This document shows, piece after piece, positions 14,427-62,925 of a DNA stretch of 64,000 nt; position 1 is the stretch's first letter, and every line of letters begins with the position of its first letter. The notes beneath the pieces are model-generated. The model saw nothing but the letters and a program-made list of their open reading frames with translations, made no database searches and was not told the origin of the DNA. A program made the translations under genes and the position numbers. The stretch comes from Cyanidioschyzon merolae (Eukaryota), in the NCBI GenBank assembly GCA_000091205.1, contig AP006498.2. The stretch is one strand, 5' to 3'.

Positions 14427-16412
14427 CTAGTCGACTTCTTCGACAGTTGGGCCGCTGCCAGTGCCAGCGCCGCCAGCACCAGGCATGCCGCCAGCTCCAG
14501 GCATGCCGCCAGCTCCAGGCATACCACCGGCACCTGGCATGCCATCTGCAGCGCCGCCAGCTTGCTGGTACATGCGAGTGAAGATGGGCATGGTAACGCT
14601 TTCCAGCTCTTTCTGCATGTTCTTGATCTGATCGAGCGAAGCAGTGGCGCCGTTTTCTTCGAGCCATTCCAGCACTTCTTTGGTCTTGTCAAGAATCTTC
14701 TGCTTGTCGCCGGCGCTGAGGCTCTGAGCTACCTGTTCCTCTTCCACGGTGCGCTTCGCCGAATAGGCCAGCTGCTCGAGCGAGTTGCGCGCCTCGACCG
14801 TGCGTCGGACTTCTTCATCCTTCGCCTTCATGGCCTCTGCCTCCTTCACCATGCGCTCAACCTCCGCCTCGCTCAGCCGACCCTTTTCATTCTTAATCGC
14901 AATCCGTTCACTCTTACCGGTAGTCTTGTCAACTGCTGTAACATTCAGGATGCCGTTCGCATCGAGGTCAAATGTGACCTCAATCTGAGGCACACCCCGT
15001 GGTGCCGGCGGAATACCTGTCAAGGTGAACTGTCCCAACAGGTGGTTGTCCTTGGTCATAGCGCGCTCGCCTTCATAAACTTGAATCGTGACAGCAGGCT
15101 GATTGTCGGCATAGGTTGTGAAGATCTGGCTCTTCTTTGTCGGGATTGTGCTGTTCCGCGGAATCAAAACAGTCATGACACCTCCGGCGGTCTCAATACC
15201 GAGCGAGAGAGGCGTCACGTCGAGCAACAGAATGTCCTTGGTCGTTTCAGACTCATGGCCCGACAAGATTGCAGCCTGGACGGCTGCTCCGTACGCCACC
15301 GCCTCATCCGGATTGATTGACTTGCAGAGCTCCTTGCCATTGAAGAACTGGCTAAGAAGTTGCTGAATCTTTGGAATGCGTGTCGAGCCGCCGACGAGAA
15401 CGACGTCGTCAACTTGGCTCTTCGACAAATTCGCGTCCTTCAGGACCCTCTCAACAGGATCGAGGGTGCTGCGGAACAAATCTCCGCAGAGCTCCTCGAA
15501 CTTGGCTCGAGTGATTGAGCTGTAAAAGTCAATGCCGTTGTAAAGGGAATCTATCTCAATCGTCGCTTGCGTCGCCGACGACAGCGTCCGTTTCGCCCGT
15601 TCGCACGCCGTCCGCAATCGCCGCATGGCTCGATTGTTCCCAGTAATGTCTTCCTTGTACTTGCGCTTGAACTCCTTCACGAAATAATCCACCATTCGCG
15701 AATCAAAGTCCTCGCCACCCAGATGAGAATTGCCAGAGACTGCGCGCACCTCGAAGATGCCCGAATCGACGCTCAGCAAGCTCACATCGAATGTTCCACC
15801 ACCAAGGTCGTAAATCAGCACATTGCGCTCCTTGTTATCACTCGTCTTCTTATCAATACCATACGCGATTGCGGCTGCCGTCGGCTCGTTGATGATGCGA
15901 AGGACGTTCAGACCGGCGATCGTACCAGCATCCTTTGTCGCCTGGCGCTGGGAATCATTGAAATATGCCGGCACTGTGATAACAGCATCAGTAACCTTCG
16001 TTCCCAGGTATGACTCCGCAATATCCTTCATTTTCGTCAACACCATGGCACTGATCTCCTCCGGGGAGAACCGTTTCACGTCGCCATGTGCGACAACCTG
16101 GATGAGCGGCTTGTCACCCGGGCCTTGAACGACCTTGAATGGCCAGTGCTTCATATCCTCCTGCACGGTAGGATCAGAGAACTTACGTCCAATGAGACGT
16201 TTCGCGTCAAAGACAGTATTCTCGGGGTTCAGCGCTACCTGGTTCTTCGCGGCGTCTCCGATGAGGCGCTCCGTCTCCGTGAAGGCAACATATGACGGGG
16301 TCGTCCGGTTGCCCTGCTCGTTCGCAATAATCTCAACCTTGTTGCCTTCCATAACGGCAACGCACGAGTAGGTCGTGCCAAGGTCAATTCCGATCGCCTT
16401 TGCCTTTGACAT
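14427..16412 (-). CDS. HSP70: Cytosolic heat-shock protein 70 (HSP70/DnaK family).
   Basis: It contains [22 protein letters not shown] and [14 protein letters not shown] signatures, four C-terminal GMPGAG repeats and a terminal EEVD. The start is an ATG and the gene is a single 661-aa exon. Confidence 0.95.
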
Positions 16413-16675
16413 TGTTCAAAGCTCGTTAACAGGAACTATTCCACGAACACGAGTTAAACGTCCAGTCTGAACACTCTGTCTCACTTGCTCCGCAACAAGA
16501 ACAATATGCTCCCGTACCGGAACTCGCTCCTCTGACACACGTGTTCTAGCGAACGGCGCGTGTTTGACTATGAACACCAATGACTCTTAAGTAGACGCCC
16601 ATTGTATGAATGGGGCCGCGACACGATCGCTAGCGACGCGTCGATCGGCGCGCCGCAGCGATCGTGCGCCGACGG

Positions 16676-16696
16676 TTCGCGAAGGATTCGGAAGCT
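16676..16696. promoter_or_regulatory. Candidate heat-shock-element-like sequence upstream of HSP70.
   Basis: The sequence ttcgcGAAggaTTCggAAGc has alternating GAA/TTC units about 265-285 bp upstream of the HSP70 ATG. One spacer is 3 nt rather than the canonical 2 nt, so the match is imperfect. It coincides with the terminus of Fanzor copy A. Confidence 0.2.
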
Positions 16697-16699
16697 TTG

Positions 16700-16940
16700 C
16701 CGCGAAAAACGCCAGCGGCGTACAGTAGTGGCAGCGACCGCGCCTTAGACAAATCGTTCTCAGCTGACGTGCAGACGCCTCCCAGCCTTTCTCGACCGGC
16801 CACCTACTACTGCTTCCAACTTCTTCTCATATAGTTCGACTTTGAGGGGTTGTCCAACAAAGTTCTCTCTTGTCTATTCTGGAGATCTGTTCTCCAGCAC
16901 CGCACATCTCCGTATATTGCTAGGGGCATGAAAGTCACGA
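16700..16940 (-). ncRNA. Candidate guide-RNA (fRNA/omega-RNA) scaffold at the 3' end of Fanzor copy A.
   Basis: A roughly 230-nt stretch runs from the RuvC-III codons through the stop codon to the element terminus. It is conserved at nucleotide level in copies A, B, C and D, including past the stop where nothing is coding. It contains complementary segments (cagtagtaggtggc ... gccactactg). This placement matches where TnpB and Fanzor guide RNAs are encoded. No RNA evidence is available from sequence alone. Confidence 0.35.
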
Positions 16941-18274
16941 TTCACACACTCCATACGGTTCTTGCCATCATTGGTTGTACTTACTAACGCAGGCAATCCT
17001 CGAACGTTCGCCCTCCTTTCCATTTGCTCCTCTGTTAGCGGTCCGTACTTTGCGATTTCCTCAGGGCACCGCTGGCACTTGTCTATCTCGACCGTCTGAA
17101 GTGTACAACCCAGCTCGTGGTGTGTATAGGACGTTCGGAACTCATCTACAGGTATCGTGACGAGACGCCTTCCACACTCCTTGTACGTTCTTGTTGTTGG
17201 AGCTGGTATGCACCCCTTTTGGGTCTTCCATCGCCCTGCTCCATACGCTACGACGAGCCTTTGACTCTGGTCCCCGTTGAGCGCACGCAACTGATTGAAA
17301 AAGTTGGCAAACGCCCGCTGCCTCCCACAGTGTAGATTCATACGCAGACGGGCCCACCGAGGCTTTGTATATTCCTTCCACAGCGCATCCCAATGGGCAA
17401 CACGAACTTCCATGAATTTCCGAAAAGCTCGAAAGTCCGCTCCTCGGCTCGTCACCTCGCTCATAGCTTCCAGGTGCTCTTTCATTCCTGAATTCCACGT
17501 TTCGATTTTCTTCGTCGCATTTATGACACCGGATTCTCGATAGAATCTCGCTCTCGAGAACGTCAACAGACGGATGTCTTTCTGACGTAAGTTGCCGTAA
17601 GTACCATCTTCCGCCCGCTTCGGTGCTGCGATGGTTATGGTATTTGTGCTTCCGGGGTCCGTGCCAACGACAAAGTCGATATCCTGCACTTTCTGCTTCT
17701 CAGAACCCGCCTTCTTGTTCTCTTCATTCTTTACCGCGCCAACGACAAGGTCGTTATGCTCCACCTCCTGCATCGCAGGATCCGCCGTCTTCTTATCTTC
17801 ATCCTTCGTCACGTCAACGACAAGGTCGTTATCCTCCACCTCCTGAATCGCACGTTCCTCCTCTTTGTTTTCTTCATCCCTCGTCACGGGCGAAGTCAAA
17901 GGCGGAACTGGCCGATCTGTCTTCAACCGCCGATCGTGTACACAAAAGGCTACCCCATCGGTTTCGATCTTCCCAGTGAATACATTTTGCTTGCTCACTT
18001 TGGGACGCTTGGAATCGGAGATACGCTTCCAGTGGGTCTCCCGGTTTTCGCCGGTGAAATCCTTCCTGCTAACACTGAACTTCGGTCCGATCTCCCTCAT
18101 GATGCCGTAAAGGACGCCGGAGTCGATACTCACGAAGTATGACTTGATATTGGACAATGGAACCACGCCGGAGCGCTTCCCCACTAGGACAGCCTTCCGT
18201 CTCTCCCACTCTTCATTTGTCTCTTCACTCAGCTTCATCTCCGCCTTGCGTTCGAGCTCTCGGTCCAGAAACAC
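16874..18274 (-). CDS. Fanzor/TnpB-like RuvC nuclease, RuvC-containing C-terminal portion of copy A.
   Basis: Motifs: RuvC-I-like [17 protein letters not shown]; RuvC-II-like [22 protein letters not shown]; a zinc-finger remnant KCQRCPEE; RuvC-III-like [16 protein letters not shown] (canonical NRDFNAAINIRR in sister copies). Upstream of RuvC-I there are about 25-aa acidic repeats ([25 protein letters not shown]). Confidence 0.8.
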
Positions 18275-18308
18275 AAAGTACCGTAGGACGAGGCGATAGT
18301 ATCGTTCC

Positions 18309-18947
18309 TTATCTTTTTTTCAACTCTGATATCTTTTCTGTTTGATTCGCCAACCCCAGTACCGCACGGTGCTCTTGTACAGTCGCCCGGATCACAGAAG
18401 CTTCATTCGCGCTCTCGTTTGACGCCTTCTTCTCGACAAATTCGACCTCATCTTCATGCTGTCGATCTTTCGTGATGCCATTGATAGTCGCCCATTTTCC
18501 TTTGCGAGAGATGCCCGGGCGGAGTGCAACCGCGGCGCGGATCACGAAACGTTCGAGGTTCGTTGTCAAACGGCTCGTCAGGTTCGTGAGGTACTTCATC
18601 GCCCCGTGGTCGTAAATATCCGCGCCACCCCTGTATCGGGTACGCTCGAAGCGGAATGCCGCGAAGTTTTCGTGGAGGGCATGCACTAGCACATTTTCCC
18701 TCCACGTTCCTGCTGTACAAAGCATCAGGTAGAGAAAAATCGTCTTGTCGAAAACCTCGTCCGGAATCTCGACCGATTCCATGTGCGTCACGTCGAGATA
18801 CATCTCCCTCGCCAGATGCATCAGTCCTGACGAAGCCTTTATAATACTCATGGAGTACGACTCAACACGGTTTCTAGTTGCCTCCCGTAACTTCTCCACC
18901 CACGCATTCTTGATATGTTTAAGAAGACAGGCTTTCACCACCGTCAC
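18309..18947 (-). CDS. N-terminal portion of the same Fanzor gene (copy A). It is out of frame with the downstream part because of a +1 shift in an A7 tract.
   Basis: In copy C the homologous sequence is one continuous frame (ORF 60843..61577 spans both parts), so the break in A and B is a +1 indel in a poly-A tract. The listed start is a GTG and there is no in-frame ATG. An NLS-like basic segment (RKKNKKQ...RKRQRRRRGR) lies in another frame further upstream. The true N-terminus is unresolved and could reflect an intron, a frameshift or a sequencing error. Confidence 0.55.
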   Translation of the reverse strand: MTVVKACLLKHIKNAWVEKLREATRNRVESYSMSIIKASSGLMHLAREMYLDVTHMESVEIPDEVFDKTIFLYLMLCTAGTWRENVLVHALHENFAAFRFERTRYRGGADIYDHGAMKYLTNLTSRLTTNLERFVIRAAVALRPGISRKGKWATINGITKDRQHEDEVEFVEKKASNESANEASVIRATVQEHRAVLGLANQTEKISELKKR

Positions 18948-19266
18948 GTAGGACTCTTGTTTTTCGTGCAGCTTCTGACGTGGGCTCTCCCTCTTCTGCG
19001 TCTTTGTCTTTTCCTGTTACTCTCCGCCGGGCACTGTTTTTTGTTTTTTTTTCTGGCAGCCGGCGACACCTGCCTTCCAGGATCCTCCACTTGCTTTTCC
19101 AGAAATTTCCTTTTTTTCGAAAAAGAACGCGCTTTGAACGCTTCTGTTATAAACTGCGAAGAATCAACCGAATACACTCATTTGAGCGTTGAAACACGAC
19201 TGAGATGAAGTAATATATTTCGCTACGATTCCAATGCAAATACATGTTTTACGTTAAAACAACAAG

Positions 19267-19955
19267 TCAACGAATGGTCAGGATCGCGTTTCCCTTCAAC
19301 GGCGAGATGCGCGTCGTACCTCATGCCTGCCGGTTATGGAGGTGCGCATCTCGACCGCACTATATGCAGCAAAGAACAGGACTAGCTACTGACTAGCAAT
19401 GAGATGACCATTTCTTTCCCACTCTACAGTAAACGTTAAAAGGGCAAATGTTGCCATATCGTCGGAAGCTTACCTTCCAGGCGAAAGGTCCAGCGAGCCG
19501 GACGAGTCTCCGGGGGTTCGTGCTTCATGGCTTCCCCTTCGCCACCCCAGTGCCAGGTGCTTTAGTGATATCTGACCAACTCATCCCCGAAGCGGTTTAT
19601 TCCGGCATTAAGGGTGCTCAGGCAGCGTCTGGGCGTCGCCCTGGTCGCAGCGCATTCGGTGGTACGCCTACGCTGTTCTGTCCCTGTGCAGCATCCGCTC
19701 CAGCGGTACAAGCGCTGCGGCGGGTGCTCACCGCAGGCTCGGCGCACGAAAGAACGCACAAATCGACCAATCTAGCGGAAAGGGAGTCTAAGTAATGGAA
19801 CCTGGAGGCAGGGTGCACCATGATGGGCGCTTTCCCGAAAGCCGATATCCATCCCGCAATCCGTGATCCACGGTCAACGAATAGGTTTTCTCAGACCAGA
19901 AAAAGAACAAGACACGACGCACATCTCGCCGTTGAAGGGAAACGCGATCCTGATC
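19267..19955. repeat. MITE-like segment bounded by a 41-bp inverted-repeat pair. It encloses an R3 copy.
   Basis: ggtcaggatcgcgtttcccttcaacggcgagatgcgcgtcg at 19267-19307 is reverse-complemented at 19915-19955. The same pair occurs in the duplicate at 32415 and 33060. A single arm is present at 60089-60131 beside copy C. Confidence 0.45.
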
Positions 19956-20079
19956 ATGAACGTGTCGCTCTAACGGACAAGACGTGTTAGGGTTGAAGGG
20001 GCAGCAAGGTCTAGTCTTTCAATGCATTCGTGTTCCACTAGCCTCGTAGAGTATTCAAGTGGTTTTTCGCGGTTAACAG

Positions 20080-20583
20080 CAGATGCGTTCCAAGTGCGTT
20101 CGTTCTCAAAAAAAATAGAATGCAATGGTATGGACGTGAAAGTCGAGGATACCGGAGGACCGTCATTGCCGAGTTCGACAAGCAAAATGAGGAAATCCTC
20201 TTCCCGCCGACCACCTATCCAAGAAGAACAACGGGTGACGACAACGAAGACGATGACGATGACGACGATGCGATATAGGCGAGAAAAGGTGTTTGCTCAC
20301 CGGTACGTTTACGAAACTGTGGTGGCACAGAGAGCACGAGTTCGAGGCGTCTTCGCAAAGCGAGGTTCCACCATCGGCCATAAATGCAAGGAGTTCGTCG
20401 ACCGAGACCCCAACGTCGCCATCATGATCAGATAATATGCAGAGCGAAAGACTTTACCCGAGGAACTGACGCGATCTGACTTGCGGGGCAGTCTCTCAGG
20501 GTCTCCGTACACAACCAGAAGCTGAAGCCGACAGCAGGGCCCGGTCCAGCACGGCAGGGAGGCGTCTGCGGGTAGATATCCAT
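20080..20583 (+). mobile_element. Short non-autonomous Fanzor-derived element (family 2, F2a, about 500 bp).
   Basis: It has a Fanzor-type 5' terminus (gcgttccaagtgcgttcgttctcaaaaaaaata...gtcgaggataccggaggacc) joined to the 3' region, which encodes a RuvC-III remnant (KEFVDRDPNVAIMI) and a conserved tail ending gggtagatatccatg. The internal coding region is deleted. Confidence 0.6.
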
Positions 20584-22577
20584 GTATACGACATGGTCGT
20601 GGGACGTTTTTGTTCCACTGACAGGTGCGTTCGAGTTACATAGAACTGAACAGATCCACGGACAAAGACGTATGCACTAATATTTCGGCTTCTTTAAACG
20701 ACGCTGGTCTCTCCTTTCTCTCCGGCGCTGTTCATAGCAGTCGCACGATATTGGCGGTGGTGGTGTTCAGGCCCCGATTCCATAGCTGCCGACTCTTGTC
20801 TAGGCATTCCATGCACTGCCAAAAGTTGCCATCTTCGCTTCGCTTGCCATGTGCACCTTCTCTCCACTCTGTTGCGGTGCGCCCGTCGCAGCGTTGCCGC
20901 TTGGCTGTGGTCTGGCGGTCACATGCCACCAGCATACTTCGTCATCTGACGGCTAGTCGCTGACACGTGAACGCTCGCGTCGACGCTCCGTAACTGTGTG
21001 TGGCGGGTCCAGAAGCCTCACCTCAGTGCCCTGCTCCGTTCTCGCACCAGCTGCCGTAACCTACGCTCACGGGCTTCTGCTGGGCGATCGCCTCGGCGAG
21101 AGCGCTCCCCGCAGCACACGCCTGCGCATGCTGCTCCCTTCTCTAGACGACTCGTCGAAGGCGATGCTCTCCAGACAGGAACAGGTACCGCAACGAACCT
21201 CCCAGGCCGGCGTGCACGTCGTGAACTCTCGATCTGTCTTCGCTCGCTTCGCGCAAAGCAGTGACGCACACTCTACTCAAAGTCATCGCAGCGATGAGTA
21301 AAGCCCGGGTCCAAGACCCCTTTCCATGCGCAGAAAAGAGACGGGCGCCTCTGAGCGCATGTTCCGGGAACTGCACCATACTGCCAATGAGTGCCGCTCC
21401 GTCGATAGCCCCACATAGAGGTGGCATTGCCTCTCAAGCGAAACTGCCTGTTTGCAGTGATAAGCTGCGTGACGTTTCAGCGAGAGTCTGTGAACGAGTC
21501 GTCACGGCCTCAACCCAGGTATTTTTCGTCGTTCATCCAGCGACGTGAAGTGCTGCACCCGAGTGTCGCCTTGAAACAGAGGCATCGAACCTTGGCGCAT
21601 GCGAGTGATTCGTGCACGCTACACTTAGGAATATGAGAAGCGCAGAGGCTTGTACACATGTCGTGGAAGAAGATGCCTTTTATGTGATGAATCCTTGCTC
21701 GTGGGTGCCGCGCATCATTCAAATGACGGTGACGTGACGAATGCGAGCGGCAGAGGGTCTACAAAGCAACTCCGGATGTGCGACCCTGATTCCTACAGCT
21801 ACTTCCCAGTCCATGAGCCCGCACTGTTGCACTTTGCATCTACAGGCTGGAGATCTAAAACAATTGCGGAAAAATCTCAAGCCAGGAACTGCGCGAGCAG
21901 CTCAGTTCTCCACTTTAATCTGACTTAAGAATAGGATGCCATGGGTGCCTACAACTGGGACTCCGCGCGAACACGCTGCAGAAGCGTTGTTGCAGCCTCT
22001 GGACTGCAGGGAGCGCCACGCGGCGAACCAGGCCCTTTCCGCATACGACAACCCGACTCGCCAGGCTGTGACCTGGCCATACCTCAGATGGTGCTTCAGC
22101 GAACCTTGGTTCCGGACGGCCGACTTCATACGCTGGACATAGGAGCATTGCGTACTCTTTTGATCCTTCGAGAAAACATGTAATCGTTATGTGGGAACGA
22201 GCAACGCCCCTCACGGAGCATGCCACATTCGTTCTCCTGTTGCTCAACTGCCCCCCAGCCGCGGTGTCTGACGAGACGTTTGCTCTCGGGGACACCCGAC
22301 AAGTTAAATACGAACGGATTCGGGCATCCCAGGCCCGCTGATGCTATTCGAGAAGGCATACGCCTGTCGTAAATGAAACGCAATGTGTACCTCTATGGCG
22401 CACCCTCTGACGAGCAGATGCCAACACACGCGCGCTCGAAGACTGCTCCCGAAAGAAGGCCTTCCAGGACACGTAAGAGCTCTTCAATAGCATAGTGCTT
22501 GCAGCTGGTTCTGCTCAGTCCGCTCAGAGCGACGCTAGACCTCACACTGATTCCGTAGGAGCTTGCAACACAGTGCA

Positions 22578-24170: not shown

Positions 24171-24386
24171 TCAATAGGCTCCCGAGAGAAGCCTGGGGAG
24201 CTGCAAAAGATATCTGCAGTGGACCGTCGTGCGCTTCCAGGTTGCCCGACTTGGGCGAGTGCTCCACTGGAACGAACAGCAGCGAGAGCGCTCGATGACG
24301 CCCGGCGGCAGCGCAGCTGCAGATCGCACACTCGTCCATTTGCGGGTGTAGCTGCAATCGCTAAATTGTCAAGTGCAAGCGGCACC

Positions 24387-28393: not shown

Positions 28394-29212
28394 TTACATA
28401 TCGCGAAACTCTATTCGACGCGATTTTAGAAGCGCCCACTTGAATCGTTTCATGTAAAGCATCAGACCTGCCAGAATGCCCAGAGAAACCATGGTTTCAA
28501 CACCCATGAGCTTGCGCTGATCGTGCTCCGGCTCTGCTGCCCAGCTCAGAAACGTAGCCACATCTTTCGCCATCTGACTTGTTGTGGCCGGAGTTCCGTC
28601 GTCGTACTCGACACCGTCATCGTAGAGCGCTCGGGCCATTGCAATCTGCTGGCCAGGGAAGTATGGATTGTAGTAGAGGCCTTCGCGAACGTGCACACCG
28701 GCCGGTGGATCACGGTAACCAGTCAGGAGTGCGAAGATGTAGTCGGCACCACCATGACGTGCCTTGGTGATCAAAGATAGGTCCGGCGGAAGCGCTCCGT
28801 TGTTGGCGTAGCGCGCGGCCTCTGCATTTGGATATGGCGCTGGGAAATAGTCCGAGAGTCGGCCAGGACGAGTAAACATCTCGCCTTCGTCGTTAGGCCC
28901 ATCCTCAACCTCAACCTCCTCCGCTAGCTGTTTCGCCTCCTCCTCAGTGAAGGCAACACCCACCAGGTTGCGAAAAGCGACTCGGTTCATCGAGTGGCAC
29001 GAAGAGCAAACATTCTTGTAAACTTGGTAGCCACGACGTATGGAAGCTGCGTCAAACGCTGACAAGGGACCGCGGTGAGACCAGGGGTATTTTGGTGGTG
29101 GCAAGTGGTCCTCTTCGGCGAGCGCGGGCTGTGCGCTCATCAGAAGATACCCGGCACCCGAGACGCCCGCCGCGAAAGCCGCGCCGTTCAGCAGTCGCGT
29201 TAGGACCTGCAT
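28394..29212 (-). CDS. CYC1: Cytochrome c1 of the bc1 complex.
   Basis: It has a heme-binding CSSCHS motif ([21 protein letters not shown]), followed by [25 protein letters not shown] and a C-terminal membrane anchor. The track ORF starts at a GTG at 29314, so the start was moved to the first in-frame ATG ([16 protein letters not shown]...). Confidence 0.85.
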
Positions 29213-29793
29213 TCCTTTGACGCGATTCTTCTCGATATAATTGAAGCGTTGTCCAGTAACCTGAAAGATCGGGCGCTGCCAGAAAACTCGTCCGCAACAA
29301 GGCACGAAATGCACGCCCTGTCGAAGCGCAACAGCACACCGGTACAGTGTTAGCGGCCTTTCACCGCAGAAACTCGCACTGATGGTGCTTTACGGAAGCT
29401 TCTCTTCGTCGCGCCTTGAGCTCTGTTCCCGGTCGAAGCGAGGCTCCCCGGGTCTGCAAAGCTCTAATAAAGCCACGTGGGCAAAGAGTCGTGCACTGCA
29501 GCAGCTGCAGCACGAACCAGATATGCTGCACCCGTTCAGAGCAAGTGCAGTGCCTCGTCTCTACTGCCGATAACGGATCCGGAGACCGACGACGGTAGAG
29601 AAACCAAACGCCTTCACAGAGTCGAACGATGCCGACTGTGTACAGTAGTGGCGGTGAACGCGCCCTAGACTTAAAGTCGCCAATTGACGTGCAGACGCCT
29701 CCCAGCCTTTCTCGACCGGCCACCTACTACTGCTTCCAACTTCTTCTCATATAGTTCGACTTTGAGAGGTTGTCCAACAAAGTTCTCTCTTGT

Positions 29794-31419
29794 CTATTCT
29801 GGAGATCTGTTCTCCAGCACCGCACATCTCCGTATATTGCTAGGGGCATGAAAGTCACGATTCACAAACTCCATACGGTTCTTGCCATCATTGGTTGTAC
29901 TTACTAACGCAGGCAATCCTCGAACGTTCGCCCTCCTTTCCATTTGCTCCTCTGTTAGCGGTCCGTACTTTGCGATTTCCTCAGGGCACCGCTGGCACTT
30001 TTCCATCTCGACCGTCTGAAGTGTACAACCCAGCTCGTGGTGTGTATAGGACGTTCGGAACTCATCTACAGATATCGTGACGAGACGCCTTCCACACTCC
30101 TTGTACGTTCGTGTTGTTGGAGCTGGTATGCACCCCTTTTGGGTCTTCCATCGCCCTGCTCCATACGCTACGACGAGCCTTTGAGTCTGGTCCCCGTTGA
30201 GCGCACGCAACTGATTGAAAAAGTTGGCAAACGCCCGCTGCCTCCCACAGTGTAGATTCATACGCAGACGGGCCCACCGAGGCTTTGTATATTCCTTCCA
30301 CAGCGCATCCCAATGGGCAACACGAACTTCCATGAATTTCCGAAAAGCTCGAAAGTCCGCTCCTCGGCTCGTCACCTCGCTCATAGCTTCCAGGTGCTCT
30401 TTCATTCCTGAATTCCACGTTTCGATTTTCTTCGTCGCATTTATGACACCGGATTCTCGATAGAATCTCGCTCTCGAGAACGTCAACAGACGGATGTCTT
30501 TCTGACGTAAGTTGCCGTAAGTACCATCTTCCGCCCGCTTCGGTGCTGCGATGGTTATGGTATTTGTGCTTCCGGGGTCCGTGCCAACGACAAAGTCGAT
30601 ATCCTGCACTTTCTGCTTCTCAGAACCCGCCTTCTTGTTCTCTTCATTCTTTACCGCGCCAACGACAAGGTCGTTATGCTCCACCTCCTGCATCGCAGGA
30701 TCCGCCGCCTTCTTATCTTCATCCTTCGTCACGTCAACGACAAGGTCGTTATGCTCCACCTCCTGCATCGCAGGATCCGCCTTCTTCTCATTTTCATCCT
30801 TCGTTACGCCAACGACAAGGTCGTTATGCTCCACCTCCTGCATCGCAGGATCCGCCGCCTTCTTATCTTCATCCTTCGTTACGCCAACGACAAGGTCGTT
30901 ATGCTCCACCTCCTGCATCGCAGGATCCGCCGTCTTCTTATCTTCATCCTTCGTCACGTCAACGACAAGGTCGTTATCCTCCACCTCCTGAATCGCACGT
31001 TCCTCCTCTTTGTTTTCTTCATCCCTCGTCACGGGCGAAGTCAAAGGCGGAACTGGCCGATCTGTCTTCAACCGCCGATCGTGTACACAAAAGGCTACCC
31101 CATCGGTTTCGATCTTCCCAGTGAATACATTTTGCTTGCTCACTTTGGGACGCTTGGAATCGGAGATACGCTTCCAGTGGGTCTCCCGGTTTTCGCCGGT
31201 GAAATCCTTCCTGCTAACACTGAACTTCGGTCCGATCTCCCTCATGATGCCGTAAAGGACGCCGGAGTCGATACTCACGAAGTATGACTTGATATTGGAC
31301 AATGGAACCACGCCGGAGCGCTTCCCCACTAGGACAGCCTTCCGTCTCTCCCACTCTTCATTTGTCTCTTCACTCAGCTTCATCTCCGCCTTGCGTTCGA
31401 GCTCTCGGTCCAGAAACAC
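29794..31419 (-). CDS. Fanzor/TnpB-like RuvC nuclease, C-terminal portion of copy B (541 aa with the expanded acidic repeat).
   Basis: It has the same RuvC-I, RuvC-II, zinc-finger and RuvC-III motifs as copy A, and five to six copies of [25 protein letters not shown]. Confidence 0.8.
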
Positions 31420-31453
31420 AAAGTACCGTAGGACGAGGCGATAGTATCGTTCC

Positions 31454-32092
31454 TTATCTTTTTTTCAACTCTGATATCTTTTCTGTTTGATTCGCCAACC
31501 CCAGTACCGCACGGTACTCTTGTACAGCCGCACGGATCACAGAAGCTTCATTCGCGCTCTCGTTTGACGCCTTCTTCTCGACAAATTCGGCCTCATCTTC
31601 ATGCTGTCGATCTTTCGTGATGCCATTGATAGTCGCCCATTTTCCTTTGCGAGAGATGCCCGGGCGGAGTGCAACCGCGGCGCGGATCACGAAACGTTCG
31701 AGGTTCGTTGTCAAACGGCTCGTCAGGTTCGTGAGGTACTTCATCGCCCCATAGTCGTAAATATCCGCGCCACCCCTGTATCGGGTACCCTCGAAGCGGA
31801 ATGCCGCGAAGTTTTCGTGGAGGGCATGCACTAGCACATTTTCCCTCCACGTTCCTGCTGTACAAAGCATCAGGTAGAGAAAAATCGTCTTGTCGAAAAC
31901 CTCGTCCGGAATCTCGACCGATTCCATGTGCGTCACGTCGAGATACATCTCCCTCGCCAGATGCATCAGTCCTGACGATGCCTTTATAATACTCATGGAG
32001 TACGACTCAACACGGTTTCTAGTTGCCTCCCGTAACTTCTCCACCCACGCATTCTTGATATGTTTAAGAAGACAGGCTTTCACCACCGTCAC
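31454..32092 (-). CDS. N-terminal portion of the Fanzor gene in copy B, with the same A7-tract +1 frameshift as copy A.
   Basis: It is near-identical to 18309..18947. Confidence 0.55.
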   Translation of the reverse strand: MTVVKACLLKHIKNAWVEKLREATRNRVESYSMSIIKASSGLMHLAREMYLDVTHMESVEIPDEVFDKTIFLYLMLCTAGTWRENVLVHALHENFAAFRFEGTRYRGGADIYDYGAMKYLTNLTSRLTTNLERFVIRAAVALRPGISRKGKWATINGITKDRQHEDEAEFVEKKASNESANEASVIRAAVQEYRAVLGLANQTEKISELKKR

Positions 32093-33224
32093 GTAGGACT
32101 CTTGTTTTTCGTGCAGCTTCTGACGTGGGCTCTCCCTCTTCTGCGTCTTTGTCTTTTCCTGTTACTCTCCGCCGGGCACTGTTTTTTGTTTTTTTTTCTG
32201 GCAGCCGGCGACACCTGCCTTCCAGGATCCTCCGCTTGCTTTTCCAGAAATTTCCTTTTTTCGAAAAAGAACACGCTTTGAACGCTTCTGTTATAAACTG
32301 CGAAAAATCAACCGAATACACTCATTTGAGCGTTGAAACACGACTGAGATGAAATAATATATTTCGCTACGATTCCAATGCAAATACACGTTTTACGTTA
32401 AAACAACAAGTCAACGAATGGTCAGGATTGCGTTTCCCTTCAACGGCGAGATGCGCGTCGTACCTCATGCCTGCCGGTAATGGAGGTGTGCATCTCGACC
32501 GCACTATATGCAGCAAAGAACAGGACTAGCTACTGACTAGCAATGAGATGACCATTTCTTTCCCACTCTACAGTAAACGTTAAAAGGGCAAATGTTGCCA
32601 GATCGTCGAAAGCTTACCTTCCAGGCGAAAGGTCCAGCGAGCCGGACGAGTCTCCGGGGGTTCGTGCTTCATGGCTTCCCCTTCGCCACCCCAGTGCCAG
32701 GTGCTCTAGTGATATCTGACCAACTCATCCCCGAAGCGGTTTATTCCGGCATTAAGGGTGCTCAGGCAGCGTCTGGGCGTCGCCCTGGTCGCAGCGCATT
32801 CGGTGGTACGCCTACGCTGTCCTGTCCCTGTGCAGCATCCGCTCCAGCGGTACAAGCGCTGCGGCGGGTGCTCACCGCAGGCTCGGCGCACGAAAGAACG
32901 CACAAATCGACCAGTCTAGCGGAAAGGGAGTCTAAGTAATGGAACCTGGAAGCAGGGTGCACCATGACGGGCGCTTTCCCGAAAGCCGATATCCATCCCG
33001 CAATCCGTGATCCACGGTCGATGGATAGGTTTTCTCAGACCAGAAAAAGAACAAGACACGACGCACATCTCGCCGTTGAAGGGAAACGCGATCCTGATCA
33101 TGAACGTGTCGCTCTAACGGACAAGACGTGTTAGGGTTGAAGTGGCAGCAAGGTCTAGTCTTTCAATGCATTCGTGTTCCACTAGCCTCGTAGAGTATTC
33201 AAGTGGTTTTTCGCGGTTAACAGC

Positions 33225-33728
33225 AGATGCGTTCCAAGTGCGTTCGTTCTCAAAAAAAATAGAATGCAATGGTATGGACGTGAAAGTCGAGGATACCGGA
33301 GGACCGTCATTGCCGAGTTCGACAAGCAAAATGAGGAAATCCTCTTCCCGCCGACCACCTATCCAAGAAGAACAACGGGTGACGACAACGAAGACGATGA
33401 CGATGACGACGATGCGATATAGGCGAGAAAAGGTGTTTGCGCAACCGGTACGTTTACGAAACTGTGGTGGCACAGAGAGCACGAGTTCGAGGCGTCTTCG
33501 CAAAGCGAGGTTCCACCATCGGCCATAAATGCAAGGAGTTCGTCGACCGAGACCCCAACGTCGCCATCATGATCAGATAATATGCAGAGCGAAAGACTTT
33601 ACCCGAGGAACTGACGCGATCTGACTTGCGGGGCAGTCTCTCAGGGTCTCCGTACACAACCAGAAGCTGAAGCCGACAGCAGGGCCCGGTCCAGCACGGC
33701 AGGGAGGCGTCTGCGGGTAGATATCCAT
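33225..33728 (+). mobile_element. Short non-autonomous Fanzor-derived element (F2b). It is the duplicate of F2a.
   Basis: It has the same sequence as 20080-20583 within the duplicated block. Confidence 0.6.
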
Positions 33729-35220
33729 GTATACGACATGGTCGTGGGACGTTTTTGTTCCACTGACAGGTGCGTTCGAGTTACATAGAACTGAACAGAT
33801 CCACGGACAAAGACGTATGCACTAATATTTCGGCTTCTTTAAACGACGCTGGTCTCTCCTTTCTCTCCGGCGCTGTTCATAGCAGTCGCACGATATTGGC
33901 GGTGGTGGTGTTCAGGCCCCGATTCCATAGCTGCCGACTCTTGTCTAGGCATTCCATGCACTGCCAAAAGTTGCCATCTTCGCTTCGCTTGCCATGTGCA
34001 CCTTCTCTCCACTCTGTTGCGGTGCGCCCGTCGCAGCGTTGCCGCTTGGCTGTGGTCTGGCGGTCACATGCCACCAGCATACTTCGTCATCTGACGGCTA
34101 GTCGCTGACACGTGAACGCTCGCGTCGACGCTCCGTAACTGTGTGTGGCGGGTCCAGAAGCCTCACCTCAGTGCCCTGCTCCGTTCTCGCACCAGCTGCC
34201 GTAACCTACGCTCACGGGCTTCTGCTGGGCGATCGCCTCGGCGAGAGCGCTCCCCGCAGCACACGCCTGCGCATGCTGCTCCCTTCTCTAGACGACTCGT
34301 CGAAGGCGATGCTCTCCAGACAGGAACAGGTACCGCAACGAACCTCCCAGGCCGGCGTGCACGTCGTGAACTCTCGATCTGTCTTCGCTCGCTTCGCGCA
34401 AAGCAGTGACGCACACTCTACTCAAAGTCATCGCAGCGATGAGTAAAGCCCGGGTCCAAGACCCCTTTCCATGCGCAGAGAAGAGACGGGCGCCTCTGAG
34501 CGCATGTTCCGGGAACTGCACCATACTGCCAATGAGTGCCGCTCCGTCGATAGCCCCACATAGAGGTGCCATTGCCTCTCAAGCGAAACTGCCTGTTCGC
34601 AGTGATAAGCTGCGTGACGTTTCAGCGAGAGTCTGTGAACGAGTCGTCACGGCCTCAACCCAGGTATTTTTCGTCGTTCATCCAGCGACGTGAAGTGCTG
34701 CACCCGAGTGTCGTCTTGAAGCAGAGGCATCGAACCTTGGCGCATGCGAGTGATTCGTGCACGCTACACTTAGGAATATGAGAAGCGCAGAGGCTTGTAC
34801 ACATGTCGTGGAAGAAGATGCCTTTTATGTGATGAATCCTTGCTCGTGGGTGCCGCGCATCATTCAAATGACGGTGACGTGACGAATGCGAGCGGCAGAG
34901 GGTCTACAAAGCAACTCCGGATGTGCGACCCTGATTCCTACAGCTACTTCCCAGTCCATGAGCCCGCACTGTTGCACTTTGCATCTACAGGCTGGAGATC
35001 TAAAACAATTGCGGAAAAATCTCAAGCCAGGAACTGCGCGAGCAGCTCTGTATTGCATTGATTCTAACACTGGCGCTGCATCAGGTGCCGCCGCTGTTTC
35101 TCTGCAAAGCTCTGCCGTGCGCTCTCTCTCGCTTTCTCTCTCTACAACCTCCTCTCCGCGCCCTTGGCCAAAACACGTGAACAGAGTGCTGGATGTCGAG
35201 CATAACGCCCCGTTGCGCAG

Positions 35221-35724
35221 CTATCCGCCAGTCTGCACCTGCTTCGAGTACTCTCTCACTAAATAGACCAGGACCGCTATGCATACAGGAACAAACAGTC
35301 GTTTCAAAAGCGTCCACGTGCTGGATCCACCAGAGAGCGGCTCAGCTCCGAACGCGCCCCCGGCAAAGAGTCGCTCTTTTCCCAGACCGTTGGCTCGAAC
35401 ACCATCGCCGTCACGCCTCTCGGCTGCTGCACTCGCTTGGACGGCTCGCTTTGCAGCGAGTTCCTCTGCAGTGGGCTCTCGTACGTCACCAATGTAAAAC
35501 TCTTTGAGCTGCTCCCGCGCAGACTTGGAGTGACCGACATCCTCGAACTCGCGCGTCGCGTCCCGACCTGCGGTCTCGAGGAGCACGTCTTCGCCTCCGG
35601 GGTGCTCGTTCAGAAACTTCTCAACGGCGTATACTTTACCATCGATGACTAGCCAGCATGAGTCCTTATCTGCGTGTTTAGCGACCTCGTCCAAAGTAAA
35701 CTGAGTCGTGCGACCCATCGCCAT
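35221..35724 (-). CDS. CYB5: Cytochrome b5, with a heme-binding domain and a C-terminal membrane anchor.
   Basis: It has an HPGGEDVLLETAGRDATREFEDVGHS heme-binding motif and a hydrophobic C-terminus (LFVPVCIAVLVYLV). The track ORF starts 33 codons upstream at an ATG at 35823, which lies inside the Fanzor copy D terminus. The conserved b5 domain begins at M-A-M, so that start was chosen. Confidence 0.8.
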   Translation of the reverse strand: MAMGRTTQFTLDEVAKHADKDSCWLVIDGKVYAVEKFLNEHPGGEDVLLETAGRDATREFEDVGHSKSAREQLKEFYIGDVREPTAEELAAKRAVQASAAAERRDGDGVRANGLGKERLFAGGAFGAEPLSGGSSTWTLLKRLFVPVCIAVLVYLVREYSKQVQTGG

Positions 35725-35726
35725 CA

Positions 35727-36500
35727 CCAACGCCGTTCGAAAGTCGAACGACGCCAACGGTGTACAATAGTGGCGAGTGACCCGCCCTAGAGGAGACGTC
35801 GCCAGTTGATGTGCGGACGCCATCCAATCTTTCTCGACCGGCCACGTACAACTGCTTCCAACTTTTTCTCATATAATTCCACGTTGGGAGGTTCTCCCAC
35901 AAAATTCTCTCTTGTCTACTTTGGAGGTCTATTCTCCAGCACCGCACATCTCCTTATATCGATAGCTGCGTTAAGGTCTCGGTTCACAAACTCGATACGT
36001 TTCTTGCCATCATTGGTTGTACTTACTAATGCAAGTAGCCGTCGAACTTTTGCCCTCCTTTCCATTTGCTCGTCTGTCAGCGGTCCGTACTTTTTTATAT
36101 CCTCAGGGCTCCACTGACACTTTTACATTTCCACTCTCTGAGGTGTGCATCCGAGTTCATGGTGTGTACACGATGTTCGGAACTCATCTACAGGTATCGT
36201 GACGAAACGCCTTGCGCACTCCTTTTACGTTCTTGTCGATGGAGCTGGTGTAGTCCCTTTTTGGGTCTTCCATCGGCCTGCTCCGTACGCTACTACGAGC
36301 CTCTGACTTTCATCCTCCTTCAGGGCACTCAGCTGATTGAAGAAGTTTGCGAACGCCCGCTGCCTCCCACCGTATAGATGCATACGCTGACGAGCCCACC
36401 GGGGCTTTGTATACCCTTTCTACAGCTCCTCGTTATGAGCAGCGCGAGTATTCATGAACTCCAGAAAAGCCTGAAAGTCCGCTCAACGGCTCGTCACGTT
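35727..36500 (-). mobile_element. Truncated family-1 Fanzor element (copy D), 3' part only. Its terminus abuts the cytochrome b5 start codon.
   Basis: It aligns with the 3' roughly 770 bp of copies A and B, covering the tail, the stop and the RuvC-III/zinc-finger region. It ends in gccactattgtaca followed by cgttggcgtcgttcgactttcgaacggcg. Similarity to A and B stops near 36500. Confidence 0.65.
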
Positions 36501-36539
36501 ACCGATAGATGAGTAACGAACGACTTTCGTCCACCATGA

Positions 36540-38524: not shown

Positions 38525-38601
38525 GCCCGACCTACCCGAGCGGTCTTCAACAGCCTCCAGTTTGCAGTGTATTCCGAAAGACTTGCGAAAAAGGAGTTTC
38601 G

Positions 38602-56109: not shown

Positions 56110-58737
56110 CTAGCATTCATCGCACCAGACGCTTGTCTCCTGGACAATGCGCTGGATCATGTCCAGCACGCTCCTATAGCGCACATCCTCCCGGCTTGGT
56201 GGCTTACAAACCTGCAAGTGATCGGCACGATCCACGCGGACCAGCTCGCCGACCCCTGCGTAAGCAGATTCCTCTGAAACGAATAGGAAGCGACTCCCGC
56301 CCCACGTTCGAGTTGTGGTGCCTTCATAGATGCTGAGCACTTGCACCGGCGGTAGTATGCAGCTTGGCTCTAGGGACAACTTCTTCGCTGGTGACGAAGG
56401 AACATCGCAGTCTGATGCTGCGGCTTCCTGCTCATCGTCGTCGGCAGCGCTGCGACGTTTGATTTCCTCACGTAAAAGGCCCTGCACATACTCAGTGCCG
56501 ACCGATACCGGTCCAAGCACGTCCAGAACTTGGTCGCCTCGCTCGCGAAAGACCTGTCGACGAGACGGCTCTCTGCTAGACTGTTGTCCACGATGCGCGT
56601 GCTGGTCTGCAACGGTGCTCTGGAGCTCGCTCCGGATGCCCGCTCCTCCTTCGGCAGGTCTTCGAGCATATTTTGTTGTCCCTGCATCCAGCGCTGAGCG
56701 CGACCCATCCCGCTGCTGCTGACCTGCACTTGCTGCCAACCAGAGACCCCAGAGCACCCCGGGAAGCCGAGTGCGCCCCTGGTCGTCGCGCAGTTCTCGA
56801 CAGGGGTGTCGAATGAGTGTCAGAAAGGCACGGTGTAACTTTTCGATGCTTTCATTGTAGGGGAGCAGCTCACGCACGGGCGCTGCAGGCCTGACGGCCT
56901 TGTCGAGGATGCCACCCAGAAACCGGCCAGCAACTGCAGATCCATGATGCGGTGTCGAATAGAACGCAATACCACGCAATGCCCTAGACAAGGTTCCCGC
57001 GCCCGGCGTATCAGCAGCCGAGGCAGCTGCGTCATCCACGAGGAGCTGTTTCGCAATGAGGCCTCCATATGAGTGCGCAACAAGCACCAGGGGCCGCTTG
57101 CCCACACCTGCTCGGAGGAGTTTCCGACGCAGATCAGCGGCTTGCTCGCTCAAGGAGAGCGTTGCACCGGATTCCTCAGAACTTCCCCAGGCGGTCAGGG
57201 CACTGGAGTAACCAACGGAGAGAATTCGTGCCGATGCACCAAGGTCTGGCGCGAGCCACTCCCGAGGCCACAGTCGCTCTTGCCAGGCTTTCATGCTCTT
57301 GCGCGCTGCGGTTGCCTGCACAGGCGCCTCAACGAGGTCCTCATCCGTCGGTTTGCGGACGTCGTAGGCGCCACATCGCCACGTCAGAAGCGGATCGCCT
57401 CGAAGTCCGTGGACAAATACCACATCCACCAGGGGTGCGCAGGCTCGCGCTAGGGTCGGCTCAGGAGATAGCAGGTACACCTCCAAATCGAGGCGGTTCG
57501 ATGAATATCCCAGGAGTTCCTCACACGCATTCTCGAGGGCTCGATCCGCGCACGCCTGCAGAAGCGTATGATCTGTTCTACACTTCCACTCGCAAAAGAT
57601 GCGAATCCATTCAGGATATTGCTGGGCAAGCGTAACACTAAACCGATCCGTGATCCGCTTTGCTATTTCCATGCGTAGAAGATCCGCTGCCTGCACGCCC
57701 GCAGTGCCGCTTCTATCCCGGCTGTTGGGAGACGACGGCCTTGGTGTCTCTGCAGCATTCATGTTCACGAGTCCTGCGCCCTGCTGCTGTCTCGAATCGG
57801 CAAGGAGCATCAGCGTGCGCATGCATTCATCTGCTTTGGGGTTTCCGTCAATCTGCTCAAACAAAAGTGTGACTGCTCTGGTATCCGCATGACGAACGCA
57901 GGCAGAGGCAAGCAGGCGAGCGTACTCCTGTTCAGGAGTCTCAGTTGGAAGTGCCAACAGGCCATCGGTGTCATCCGGGAAAAGTGGAAGACGTCGCAGC
58001 GGAGACGGGTCCGCTTCTAGAATCCGTTCAAGCGTTCCTCGCAATACAGCAAACATCTGGGTATCGTCGAGGCTGTGGTTCGCAGTACGCTCGTGTGCCA
58101 GTGTTGTGGCTGCTGGGTCCGGCAGCGCGGACTCGACGCTATGCCGTCCCACTGTTCTGCGCTCGCCAGCAACCGCTGGAGAAGCAGCCACCAGTTGGGA
58201 CCACGATTCTAACAGCACTGGGGCAACAGCTGCCTGCCTGGCAAACTCCAGCAAATGAGGTGTGCTTCCTCTCACACTGTATGGAGCACATCGCAGTAGC
58301 AAGCGAGAAGCCTCAGCGCTTGCGGAGACGCAGGCATCGCGCAGGGACTCCATGACAGCGCGACTGATCGGCCTTGAGGCGTGTTGCATAGCGTCTCCGG
58401 AGGCGTGCCCCTGCTCGCTCGAGAAACCTGTTCGAAAAAGTTTCTTGCTGGTCGCTTGGTTGCACGCGAGCCGCCAGATACGGGCGATCCAAGCAGTCAA
58501 GACCCAGCCTCCTTGCAGCGCCCATTCTTCGCACCACGCAGCATCTTCAACGGGTCTTAGACTCCGCATGGCGAGTGCTCGCTGTTCAGCGTCCCCAACG
58601 CGCAGACGCCATACCGTCTGCAACACTTGTCTGCGGATATATACCCGGTCCATCGTACCAAACCCACCTGCTGGGCGGCCTCGACTCCATTCCGTGCATG
58701 CTCGGTCGCTCTGTTGAACACTTGACGACTCTCCCAT
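56110..58737 (-). CDS. SERAC1-like alpha/beta-hydrolase protein (a GxSxG lipase-like domain with a long N-terminal region).
   Basis: DVVFVHGLRGDPLLTWR and the nucleophile elbow LVAHSYGGLIAKQLL match the SERAC1/DUF676-type fold. The start is an ATG and the ORF is 875 aa. Confidence 0.6.
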   Translation of the reverse strand: MGESSSVQQSDRACTEWSRGRPAGGFGTMDRVYIRRQVLQTVWRLRVGDAEQRALAMRSLRPVEDAAWCEEWALQGGWVLTAWIARIWRLACNQATSKKLFRTGFSSEQGHASGDAMQHASRPISRAVMESLRDACVSASAEASRLLLRCAPYSVRGSTPHLLEFARQAAVAPVLLESWSQLVAASPAVAGERRTVGRHSVESALPDPAATTLAHERTANHSLDDTQMFAVLRGTLERILEADPSPLRRLPLFPDDTDGLLALPTETPEQEYARLLASACVRHADTRAVTLLFEQIDGNPKADECMRTLMLLADSRQQQGAGLVNMNAAETPRPSSPNSRDRSGTAGVQAADLLRMEIAKRITDRFSVTLAQQYPEWIRIFCEWKCRTDHTLLQACADRALENACEELLGYSSNRLDLEVYLLSPEPTLARACAPLVDVVFVHGLRGDPLLTWRCGAYDVRKPTDEDLVEAPVQATAARKSMKAWQERLWPREWLAPDLGASARILSVGYSSALTAWGSSEESGATLSLSEQAADLRRKLLRAGVGKRPLVLVAHSYGGLIAKQLLVDDAAASAADTPGAGTLSRALRGIAFYSTPHHGSAVAGRFLGGILDKAVRPAAPVRELLPYNESIEKLHRAFLTLIRHPCRELRDDQGRTRLPGVLWGLWLAASAGQQQRDGSRSALDAGTTKYARRPAEGGAGIRSELQSTVADQHAHRGQQSSREPSRRQVFRERGDQVLDVLGPVSVGTEYVQGLLREEIKRRSAADDDEQEAAASDCDVPSSPAKKLSLEPSCILPPVQVLSIYEGTTTRTWGGSRFLFVSEESAYAGVGELVRVDRADHLQVCKPPSREDVRYRSVLDMIQRIVQETSVWCDEC

Positions 58738-60240: not shown

Positions 60241-60249
60241 GACTTTTCG

Positions 60250-62690: not shown

Positions 62691-62925
62691 CTGGCGTCGT
62701 TCGACTTTCGAACGGCGTTTTGCGATGGTTTGATCGTTGCAACGCTCCAGGAGCAAACAAGGCTTGGAAACGTGCACGCTTTTCATGGAAAGAGCGCAGC
62801 GCTGCTTGCAGAGAGAGCCTTTGATGCGGTAGAGGTGCTTGGTGCTCGTCGCTGAGAGTCCGCGAAGCAACTGCACCAAAACTGGCGACGGCAAGGTTTT
62901 ATCTATGTGCATGGTAGTCGCGAAA

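Follow-up and report, generated by a model that had tools for sequence, protein, structure and literature searches.

CMe-1A Fanzor elements of Cyanidioschyzon tend to lie with their right ends facing the start of a co-oriented host gene

In a stretch of 64,000 nucleotides from Cyanidioschyzon merolae (contig AP006498.2 of GenBank assembly GCA_000091205.1, the whole of which is here called the window) self-BLAST finds four related segments, copies A, B, C and D, which belong to the published CMe-1A family of Fanzor1 elements. Each of the four has its right end (RE) upstream of a host gene that is read from the same strand. In a wider set of 54 right-end sites, the RE faces the start of a co-oriented gene at 39 (p = 0.0015). 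The placement of transposons near the 5' ends of genes and the donation of promoters by them are known from other families, and CMe-1A itself has been described before. What is new is that a Fanzor element systematically has its presumed guide-encoding end where a host gene on the same strand begins, in some cases only a few nucleotides from the start codon. No report of a positional bias for CMe-1A or for other Fanzor elements was found in the literature searched.

The window has a G+C content of about 55% (50-60%) and carries long unbroken open reading frames (ORFs) for housekeeping proteins on both strands; its genes are intron-free. A sequence-only reading of it had placed all four copies 0-330 bp upstream of a co-oriented start codon. 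The arrangement holds, at ~280 bp for copy A, 394 bp for copy B, ~185 bp for copy C and 4 bp for copy D, but the upper bound of the range has to be moved to ~395 bp because of copy B. The element termini were placed using self-BLAST, an alignment of the tails and the published CMe-1A consensus, whose end is the terminal hairpin, and all four shift somewhat from where they had been put. For copy A, the start codon of the HSP70 gene at 16412 is correct, but the RE, earlier given as 16720 and 290 bp away, lies at ~16690-16703; the terminal hairpin of this copy is aberrant, and its alignment to the other copies is lost after 16703. The RE of copy B goes from 29640 to 29607, with the first ATG of the cytochrome c1 gene at 29212, and that of copy C from ~62690 to 62719, with the first ATG of the RNase III-like frame at 62905. 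Copy D does abut the cytochrome b5 start at 35724, with its terminus at 35729 instead of ~35727 and GGTG between the two; the junction reads ...CGAACGGCGTT GGTG ATG GCG ATG. In the tail alignment, the sequence of B, C and D is common up to ...TTCGAC(T)TTCGAACGGCGTT, which is where the published consensus stops. BLAST with the tails found no fifth family-1 tail within the window.

Four cases out of four had been called unlikely by chance. This is too strong, as 0.5^4 is 0.06, and the null for co-orientation, weighted by the lengths of the different types of intergenic region, is ~0.48. The case for non-randomness is sound only with 50 added sites, because the four copies by themselves give p ~0.06. 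These sites were obtained with a protein profile that was run against metagenome contigs of this organism group; the best 80 of 356 hits were used. BLAST with the tails then gave 100 tails, which fall into 64 clusters of downstream flanks. Ten of these clusters were left out (five pieces of an alternative 5' module, two weak hits and three without a usable flank), leaving 54 usable right-end sites, 50 of them outside the window and four within it. Genes were called from ORFs and a codon score, with a caller trained on the long ORFs of the same sequences. Pfam domains were found in 16 of the 17 neighbour genes tested, and include Tim17, COPI-associated protein, glutaredoxin, TPT transporter, WD40, bicarbonate transporter, RNase III, Macro, VHL, LRR, RRM, ribosomal protein S4e, cupin, DUF155 and copper amine oxidase. 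Downstream flanks of different sites are not related to one another, except in two pairs of facing or adjacent tails, each pair on the same contig, whose flanks overlap. It is worth noting that metagenome contigs may mix strains, and that repeat coverage was used to estimate where the left ends lie.

A tally of orientation and distance, which the sequence-only reading had proposed as a genome-wide check, was run on these 54 sites, and its outcome agrees with the pattern in the window. When the window sites are excluded, 35 of 50 are co-oriented (p = 0.0066), and across the 54 sites 27 gene starts but only 4 gene stops fall within 150 bp of the RE. The distances from RE to ATG range continuously from 4 to 435 bp, with a median of 83 bp. 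At 30 sites a gene could be called on either side, and here 14 of the regions are divergent, 10 are tandem and co-oriented, 5 are tandem and anti-oriented, and a single one is convergent, which fits the earlier suggestion of a preference for promoters or 5' regions. Both ends of the element face gene starts more often than stops, and the flank on the RE side is shorter than the flank on the left-end side at 27 of the 30 sites. In a simulation where the element is placed uniformly and in random orientation inside each site's own spacer, an RE within 120 bp of a co-oriented ATG is expected at 4.5 of the 30 sites, compared with 19 observed (P < 5e-5). If left-end distances are capped at 200-500 bp, the result is still P <= 1e-4, with an expected range of 4.5-9 against 19. 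The signal has two parts: one is that promoter-bearing regions are strongly preferred and convergent ones avoided, and the other is that the RE in particular lies close to the neighbouring ORF, usually to its start.

The tightest junctions leave only a few nucleotides between element and gene. In the genes for the Tim17-family protein, the COPI-associated protein, glutaredoxin, the TPT-type transporter, the bicarbonate transporter and the WD40 protein, the first methionine codon lies 4-19 nt past the terminal hairpin, and the Pfam domain starts at residue 15-20 in the Tim17, COPI_assoc and TPT neighbours. Next to copy D, the Cyt-b5 domain of Pfam begins at codon 43 of a longer ORF that opens at 35823, which is codon 10 when counted from the ATG at 35724. 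The largest neighbours, at 39-51 nt from the RE, are a protein of at least 1320 amino acids (the ORF is still open at the end of the sequence) and one of 1265 amino acids that is likely an eIF5B homologue. Since there is no room for a 5' untranslated region (UTR) or a promoter outside the element, transcription of such genes would have to start in the element or pass through it. Where the RE is 4-40 nt from the start codon, we infer that the tail supplies the 5' UTR of the host gene and probably also its promoter. The idea that element ends act as promoters or 5' UTRs, one of those put forward in the sequence-only reading, is thus hard to avoid for the tightest of these junctions, where protein domains begin within 15-20 residues, and such junctions are the best argument for this role of the tail.

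The part of the element that lies at these junctions is a conserved tail of ~215 nt that appears to be structured. It stays conserved in DNA although the stop codons vary in place, upstream of it or inside it. In copy C it ends in the hairpin GGCGTCGTTCGA-CTT-TCGAACGGCGTT. The predicted fold has a long-range stem, AGUAGUAGGUGG / CCACUACU, around three hairpins, followed by the terminal hairpin, which as RNA reads GGCGUCGUUCGA-CUU-UCGAACGGCGUU or, in a variant form, AACGUUUUU-CUUU-UGAAAGRCGUU. This structure comes from ViennaRNA alifold on sub-alignments; on the full tail alignment of 263 columns RNAalifold predicted no structure, and no Rfam family matches the tail. In 44 aligned copies, 87% of cells can pair, compared with 41-54% if the partners are slid against each other. 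Compensatory changes are few, and the covariation score of 0.132 is reached by 12 of 500 shuffles, which is modest support; the z-score of the fold is -2.2. Identity to the consensus is 82-90%, as in the coding region, and drops to 76% in the last 50 nt; conservation is no higher in the tail than in the ORF. The 9 nt past the hairpin are A-poor and T/G-rich, and because some short strings recur there between unrelated sites, the true terminus is uncertain by 0-12 nt.

The position, size and structure of this tail resemble what is expected of an omega-RNA scaffold with a guide transcribed from the flank, and it can be considered a candidate omega-RNA. We know of no description, in TnpB or Fanzor systems, of a systematic placing of the guide-encoding flank on the 5' UTRs or start codons of host genes. 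The omega-RNAs of TnpB, IscB and Fanzor, an architecture derived from IS200/IS605 (Saito et al. 2023, PMC10432273), likewise consist of a conserved non-coding structured region that runs over the 3' end of the nuclease ORF to the right end. In this layout the tail reaches the right end, and therefore transcription must cross the RE for a guide to be read from the flank. The RuvC D-E-D motif of TnpB and Fanzor is also found in the present family.

The last 85-90 nt of the tail occur a second time in some short-form copies, where they head an alternative 5' module of ~900 bp (tail-like pieces in the table below). As a consequence, those elements have the right-end sequence as a direct repeat on either side. 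Such 85-90-bp pieces, found ~3.3 kb upstream of some copies, were considered as extra right ends and rejected, as they are followed by the alternative 5' module and then by Fanzor coding sequence.

The family is that described by Bao & Jurka (2013, Mob DNA 4:12, PMC3627910), who report CMe-1A as a Fanzor1 of Cyanidioschyzon merolae with ~150 copies of ~3 kb that are ~80% identical to the consensus. They describe it as lacking terminal inverted repeats, give target-site duplications as undetermined, and note that the 5' 635 bp are common to TE-N2_CMe; in their supplement the consensus starts CGATGACAAAACGTTTACATTGACCATGGATCCC... and finishes ...CCACTACTGTACACCGCTGGCGGCAGCGTTTTTCTTTTGAAAGGCG. 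The four repeats of the window belong to this family. At the left end, CGATGACAAAACGTTTACATTGACCATGGATCCCAGATTGCGG represents the first consensus bases and is present at 59398-59450 and in 17 other copies here; at the right end, which is of the ...GCCACTACTGTACACCGCTGGCGGCAGCGTTTTTCTTTTGAAAGGCG type, 44 tails match the last ~200 consensus bases including the terminal hairpin. The length of ~3.2-3.3 kb, with a single-exon protein of ~734-752 amino acids, agrees as well, and so does the identity of the copies to the consensus (~80%). By BLASTP, the ORF of copy A is identical to the CMe-1 consensus protein at 286 of 405 positions (71%, E reported as 0.0). The 5' portion of ~600 bp is also seen as solo copies on the fetched loci, in agreement with the TE-N2_CMe module of PMC3627910. 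One such solo fragment lies near the start of the window, at 672-1007; it is 73% identical to positions 59513-59847 of copy C, which fall in its 5' module (the section called TE-N2_CMe in the literature). Our search for target-site duplications in 8 copies gave a longest match between left and right flanks of 4-6 nt, which is the chance level, and self-BLAST found no inverted-repeat relation between the element ends. There is no difference in the element itself, and the passages and supplementary files of PMC3627910 that were searched are silent on gene position, orientation, the terminal hairpin and a structured tail. The family is old: most copies are at least 13% away from the nearest paralogue, and young ones are too few for a stratification by age.

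In the element protein, the RuvC-like D...E...D triad is present in order, together with NAAxNI (GADPGNTN, VDEFRTS and NRDFNAAINI in the homologues and the consensus), and copy A also carries RuvC-type motif stretches, in both cases by motif inspection only. A phmmer search of PDB gave 0 matches; with a profile, SpuFz1 (8gkh) came up weakly at E = 0.47. The Pfam domain PF07282 (Cas12f1-like TNB domain) was hit on the RuvC-III motif at E = 0.23, which is also weak, and the precomputed database annotation is PF26935 (DUF8286). None of the Pfam and PDB matches is thus significant, and an AlphaFold2 model from 13 close homologues had a pLDDT of 31 and was unusable for the fold, which is why the label Fanzor1 rests on the analysis of Bao & Jurka.

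Table. Positions of the element copies, their tails and the adjoining host genes; coordinates are those of the window unless a locus is named
Feature	Position	Strand	Description
Copy A	16690..21903	-	CMe-1A-type Fanzor1 core to ~19509, plus a 2.4-kb 5' extension common to copy B
Copy B	29607..35048	-	Near-duplicate of copy A; terminal hairpin ends at 29607
Copy C	59398..62719	+	Full-length 3.3-kb CMe-1A element with frameshifts; right-end hairpin ends at 62719
Copy D	35729..36497	-	5'-truncated; final ~770 bp only, including the whole tail and terminal hairpin
Conserved tail, candidate structured, ~215 nt	C 62504..62719; B 29607-29822; D 35729-35944; A ~16690-16905	+ (C)	Overlaps the end of the Fanzor ORF
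Tail-like pieces	L045:4370-4455; L044:2485-2574; L077:~700-773; L079:427-516		3' half of the long stem, GGGCG hairpin, terminal hairpin
HSP70	14427..16412	-	661-aa ORF ending in EEVD; ATG at 16412, ~280 bp downstream of the copy A RE, same strand
Cytochrome c1	28394..29212	-	Pfam Cytochrom_C1, E = 4e-104; ATG at 29212, 394 bp downstream of the copy B RE, same strand
Cytochrome b5	35221..35724	-	Start codon at 35724, 4 nt past the copy D RE, same strand
RNase III-like ORF	62905..64000, runs off the window	+	First ATG at 62905, ~185 bp downstream of the copy C RE, same strand
875-aa host gene	56110..58737	-	Diverges from copy C; ATG ~660 bp from the left end of C

Self-BLAST gives an identity of 97-98.7% between copies A and B over 16720-21903, and of 79% between A and C over 16709-19509. 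Despite these 5.2 kb of near identity, A and B differ in the last 35-90 bp, which is the terminal hairpin, and in both flanks; the pair looks more like the product of ectopic gene conversion, or like a composite mobile unit, than like a simple recent transposition. Copy C is 79-81% identical to A and B. Self-BLAST alone showed it only as 59895-62719; its left end is sharp at ~59398, where it reads TTTTTTCGATGACAAAACGTTTACATTGACC, and this makes it a full-length copy of 3.3 kb. Many copies at other loci begin their homology at 59394-59402 of copy C, and the sequence further upstream is unrelated. Copy D is 81-82% identical to the 3' ends of the other three and covers residues 548-752 of a full-length homologue (P0002). 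In tblastn with this homologue, one frameshift is seen in A, one in B and two in C, D being a fragment; in copy A the Fanzor frame is split into 18309-18947 and 16874-18274. Within the Fanzor ORF there is a 75-bp tandem repeat (17663-17888, 30583-31033 and 61523-61745), which encodes an acidic unit of 25 residues; there are 3 repeat units in both A and C, 6 in B, and from 1 to 6 in the homologues.

Regarding the host genes, the identical HSP70 protein with the same element upstream is found on several metagenome contigs (JGI, ENA), and the protein also in Logan assemblies. The 272-aa cytochrome c1 product was called on 23 public contigs. This gene is convergent with an ankyrin/BTB gene (26443-28353, plus strand), with the stop codons ~40 bp apart, so that convergent spacers leave little room for insertions. 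In the RNase III-like ORF, Pfam finds Ribonucleas_3_3 (E = 3e-18) and Ribonuclease_3 (E = 4e-12). Because the start of the 875-aa gene is ~660 bp off, copy C sits in a divergent promoter region, nearer the gene that its RE faces.

The window contains further repeats. A second, more distant Fanzor-like family is represented by fragments on the plus strand at 36307-36844, 43356-43673, 53638-53984, 20244-20579 and 33388-33724. They have 34-57% protein identity to the C-terminus of family 1, and their tails are related to those of family 1. One of them lies inverted against the truncated end of copy D, and two are within the 5' extensions of A and B; the ends of these fragments are not upstream of co-oriented genes. 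Three intergenic tandem arrays are also present, at 12371-12795 (71 bp x 6, with 97% matches), 24386-24973 (99/198 bp x 6/3) and 3893-4473 (75/154/229-bp units), of which those at 12371-12795 and 24386-24973 are in long spacers beside HSP70 and MgtE. The sole tRNA gene of the window is tRNA-Leu (AAG) at 38601-38685 on the minus strand, ~80 bp past the start of a 383-aa gene (37373-38524) and inside a divergent spacer.

How the positional bias arises can be explained in several ways. The explanation that we favour, and to which we would give about an even chance of being right, is a combined one: the elements sit in promoter-bearing DNA, the RE is oriented so that transcription leaving it runs in the sense direction into the neighbour, and in the closest cases the tail acts as 5' UTR or promoter. 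According to this, insertions would land in promoter-bearing DNA or persist only there. Transcription would have to leave the RE for an omega-RNA with a flank-derived guide to be made, and presumably only the orientation in which this outward transcription is sense to the neighbour gene is tolerated. In the tightest cases, which are cytochrome b5, Tim17, TPT, glutaredoxin, the bicarbonate transporter and likely eIF5B, the tail itself would be the host 5' UTR and probably the promoter. That transcription leaves the element outward, and that the tail is active as a promoter, are predictions from the layout of the sequences. A more far-reaching version, in which the RE is an obligate outward promoter and scaffold of the omega-RNA that has come to serve many host genes of Cyanidioschyzon as promoter and 5' UTR, seems to us improbable as a whole.

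Several observations weigh against the combined model. Tandem runs taken alone give only a weak orientation bias (10 against 5), and therefore much of the co-orientation signal comes from the preference for divergent regions and the avoidance of convergent ones. The RE faces a stop codon at 10-15 sites and is sometimes only 17-41 nt from it, so gene starts are not the only ORF boundaries that it comes close to. Copies A and B, the pair homogenised most recently, have some of the longest distances to an ATG (~280 and 394 bp), and tails that abut a start are no better conserved than others (85.1% against 85.4% identity to the consensus). Transposable elements of C. merolae have been reported to carry H3K27me3 (cited in PMC13353863), which is a poor fit with a constitutive promoter. 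The gene calls, furthermore, are those of our own ORF and codon-score caller, and the sample is restricted to the best 80 of 356 hits.

Two of the alternatives do not fare well. Chance in a compact genome, where every insertion is near some gene and four out of four is a coincidence, would be compatible with the p of only ~0.06 for the window and with the size of several divergent spacers, which at just 260-380 bp make proximity an expected outcome. Yet 35 of the 50 further sites have the same orientation (p = 0.0066), starts outnumber stops by 27 to 4, and the simulation expects 4.5-9 sites where 19 are observed, so that we consider this very unlikely. Homing to a shared target upstream of genes, which the sequence-only reading had also suggested, we find hardly credible. 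The weak T/G-rich, A-poor likeness in the 9 nt after the hairpin could be seen as the trace of a target, but the independent downstream flanks have no detectable similarity, the host genes are functionally unrelated, and there is neither a target-site duplication nor a motif that is common to the flanks or joins those on the left and right. As the flanks are unrelated, homing to a shared target is excluded for any target beyond a few bases.

More serious is strand-specific targeting, in which some machinery integrates the element at the 5' ends of transcription units in a fixed orientation. Its standing is comparable to that of the favoured model, and we regard it as possible, if rather doubtful. 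It could act through single-stranded non-template DNA at promoters (in the way that HUH-type IS200/IS605 elements use such DNA at replication forks), or through a strand-asymmetric feature such as a T-tract. The element lacks inverted repeats and target-site duplications and has a (sub)terminal 3' hairpin, which is the architecture of single-strand or rolling-circle transposition, and the ancestors of Fanzor travel with elements of that kind; no transposase gene is seen in the element, however. A constant 3' end combined with variable 5' modules, and duplications that stop exactly at the RE (L050/L056), point in the same direction. A T-rich run of 5-8 nt is found before or at every mapped long-form left end and is absent from the published consensus, but these could be the first bases of the element itself. 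The 9 nt after the hairpin, A-poor and T/G-rich, can be read in favour of targeting too. Over the 150 bp that precede the ATG in 75 element-free upstream regions, the sense strand has 15 T5 runs and 5 A5 runs; these counts are small, the asymmetry is weak, and T also exceeds A downstream of stop codons. Position relative to the ATG is strongly non-uniform, as targeting would have it, but it is a 4-435 bp continuum and not a fixed offset, and the opposite configuration is present at a quarter of the sites. No empty or polymorphic site was recovered either: look-ups of the exact HSP70, cytochrome b5 and cytochrome c1 proteins gave only contigs that have the same insertions or are broken in the repeat. 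Retention by exaptation would instead hold that insertions are random, that deletion pressure is strong, and that only copies turned into promoters or 5' UTRs are kept. It would account for the age of the family, with most copies at least 13% from the nearest paralogue, for the shorter RE-side flank at 27 of 30 sites, as expected if spacer is dispensable, and for remnants consisting of an RE only that are found before starts (copy D before cytochrome b5, and a fragment in L033 that lies 37 nt before a Macro-domain gene). On the other hand, start-adjacent tails are not more conserved, two of the four clear RE-only fragments face stop codons (L050, L078), and many start-adjacent copies keep long Fanzor ORFs and are therefore not merely remnant promoters. 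We think it unlikely as the sole cause.

The element has features in common with two groups of known transposons. Like Helitrons, IS91 and IS200/IS605, it lacks inverted repeats and a target-site duplication, carries a hairpin at or near its 3' end, joins different 5' modules to a constant 3' end, and is part of some duplications that end at the RE. An example of the latter is the pair of metagenome contigs L050:1-8281 and L056:1-8267, which are 95% identical over 8.3 kb as far as the final base of the hairpin and have unrelated sequences after that point, so that the breakpoint of this rearrangement or duplication is at the RE; copies A and B, which diverge only in their last 35-90 bp, are another. 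In contrast to Helitrons and IS200/IS605, the element holds only the Fanzor ORF, without a Rep/helicase or a Y1 (HUH) transposase, and its ends are TTTTTTCGATGAC... and ...GGCG(TT) instead of 5'-TC...CTRR-3'; a target of the A-T junction or TTAC type was not found. Promoters and 5' regions are favoured by the P element, by Mutator, hAT and miniature inverted-repeat transposable elements (MITEs) in plants, by Tf1 in S. pombe and by promoter-donating Helitrons, and TRE5-A sits upstream of tRNA genes in Dictyostelium. With such transposons the present element shares its enrichment in the promoter-bearing DNA of a gene-dense genome, the closeness to starts and a plausible role as donor of a promoter or 5' UTR. 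It differs in that the bias is tied to one end, with the RE toward the nearest gene at 27 of 30 sites and down to 4-20 nt from the start, and in having a gene for an RNA-guided nuclease and no recognisable transposase.

C. merolae is tractable by homologous recombination, and RNA-seq as well as chromatin data exist for it. If the RE did serve both as outward promoter and scaffold of an omega-RNA and as promoter and 5' UTR of the host gene, housekeeping and other genes of a highly streamlined eukaryotic genome would rely on a transposon for these functions. Integration could then be strand-specific at transcription start regions, for instance into single-stranded non-template DNA. The guide of each omega-RNA would correspond to the region around the 5' UTR or start codon of the host gene next to it, and Fanzor might then maintain or regulate particular host genes in an RNA-guided way. 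A family-wide rule of such placement would give a handle on how elements without inverted repeats and target-site duplications choose their sites or survive in them, would define what the natural omega-RNA guides match, and would bear on the natural role of Fanzor in eukaryotes.

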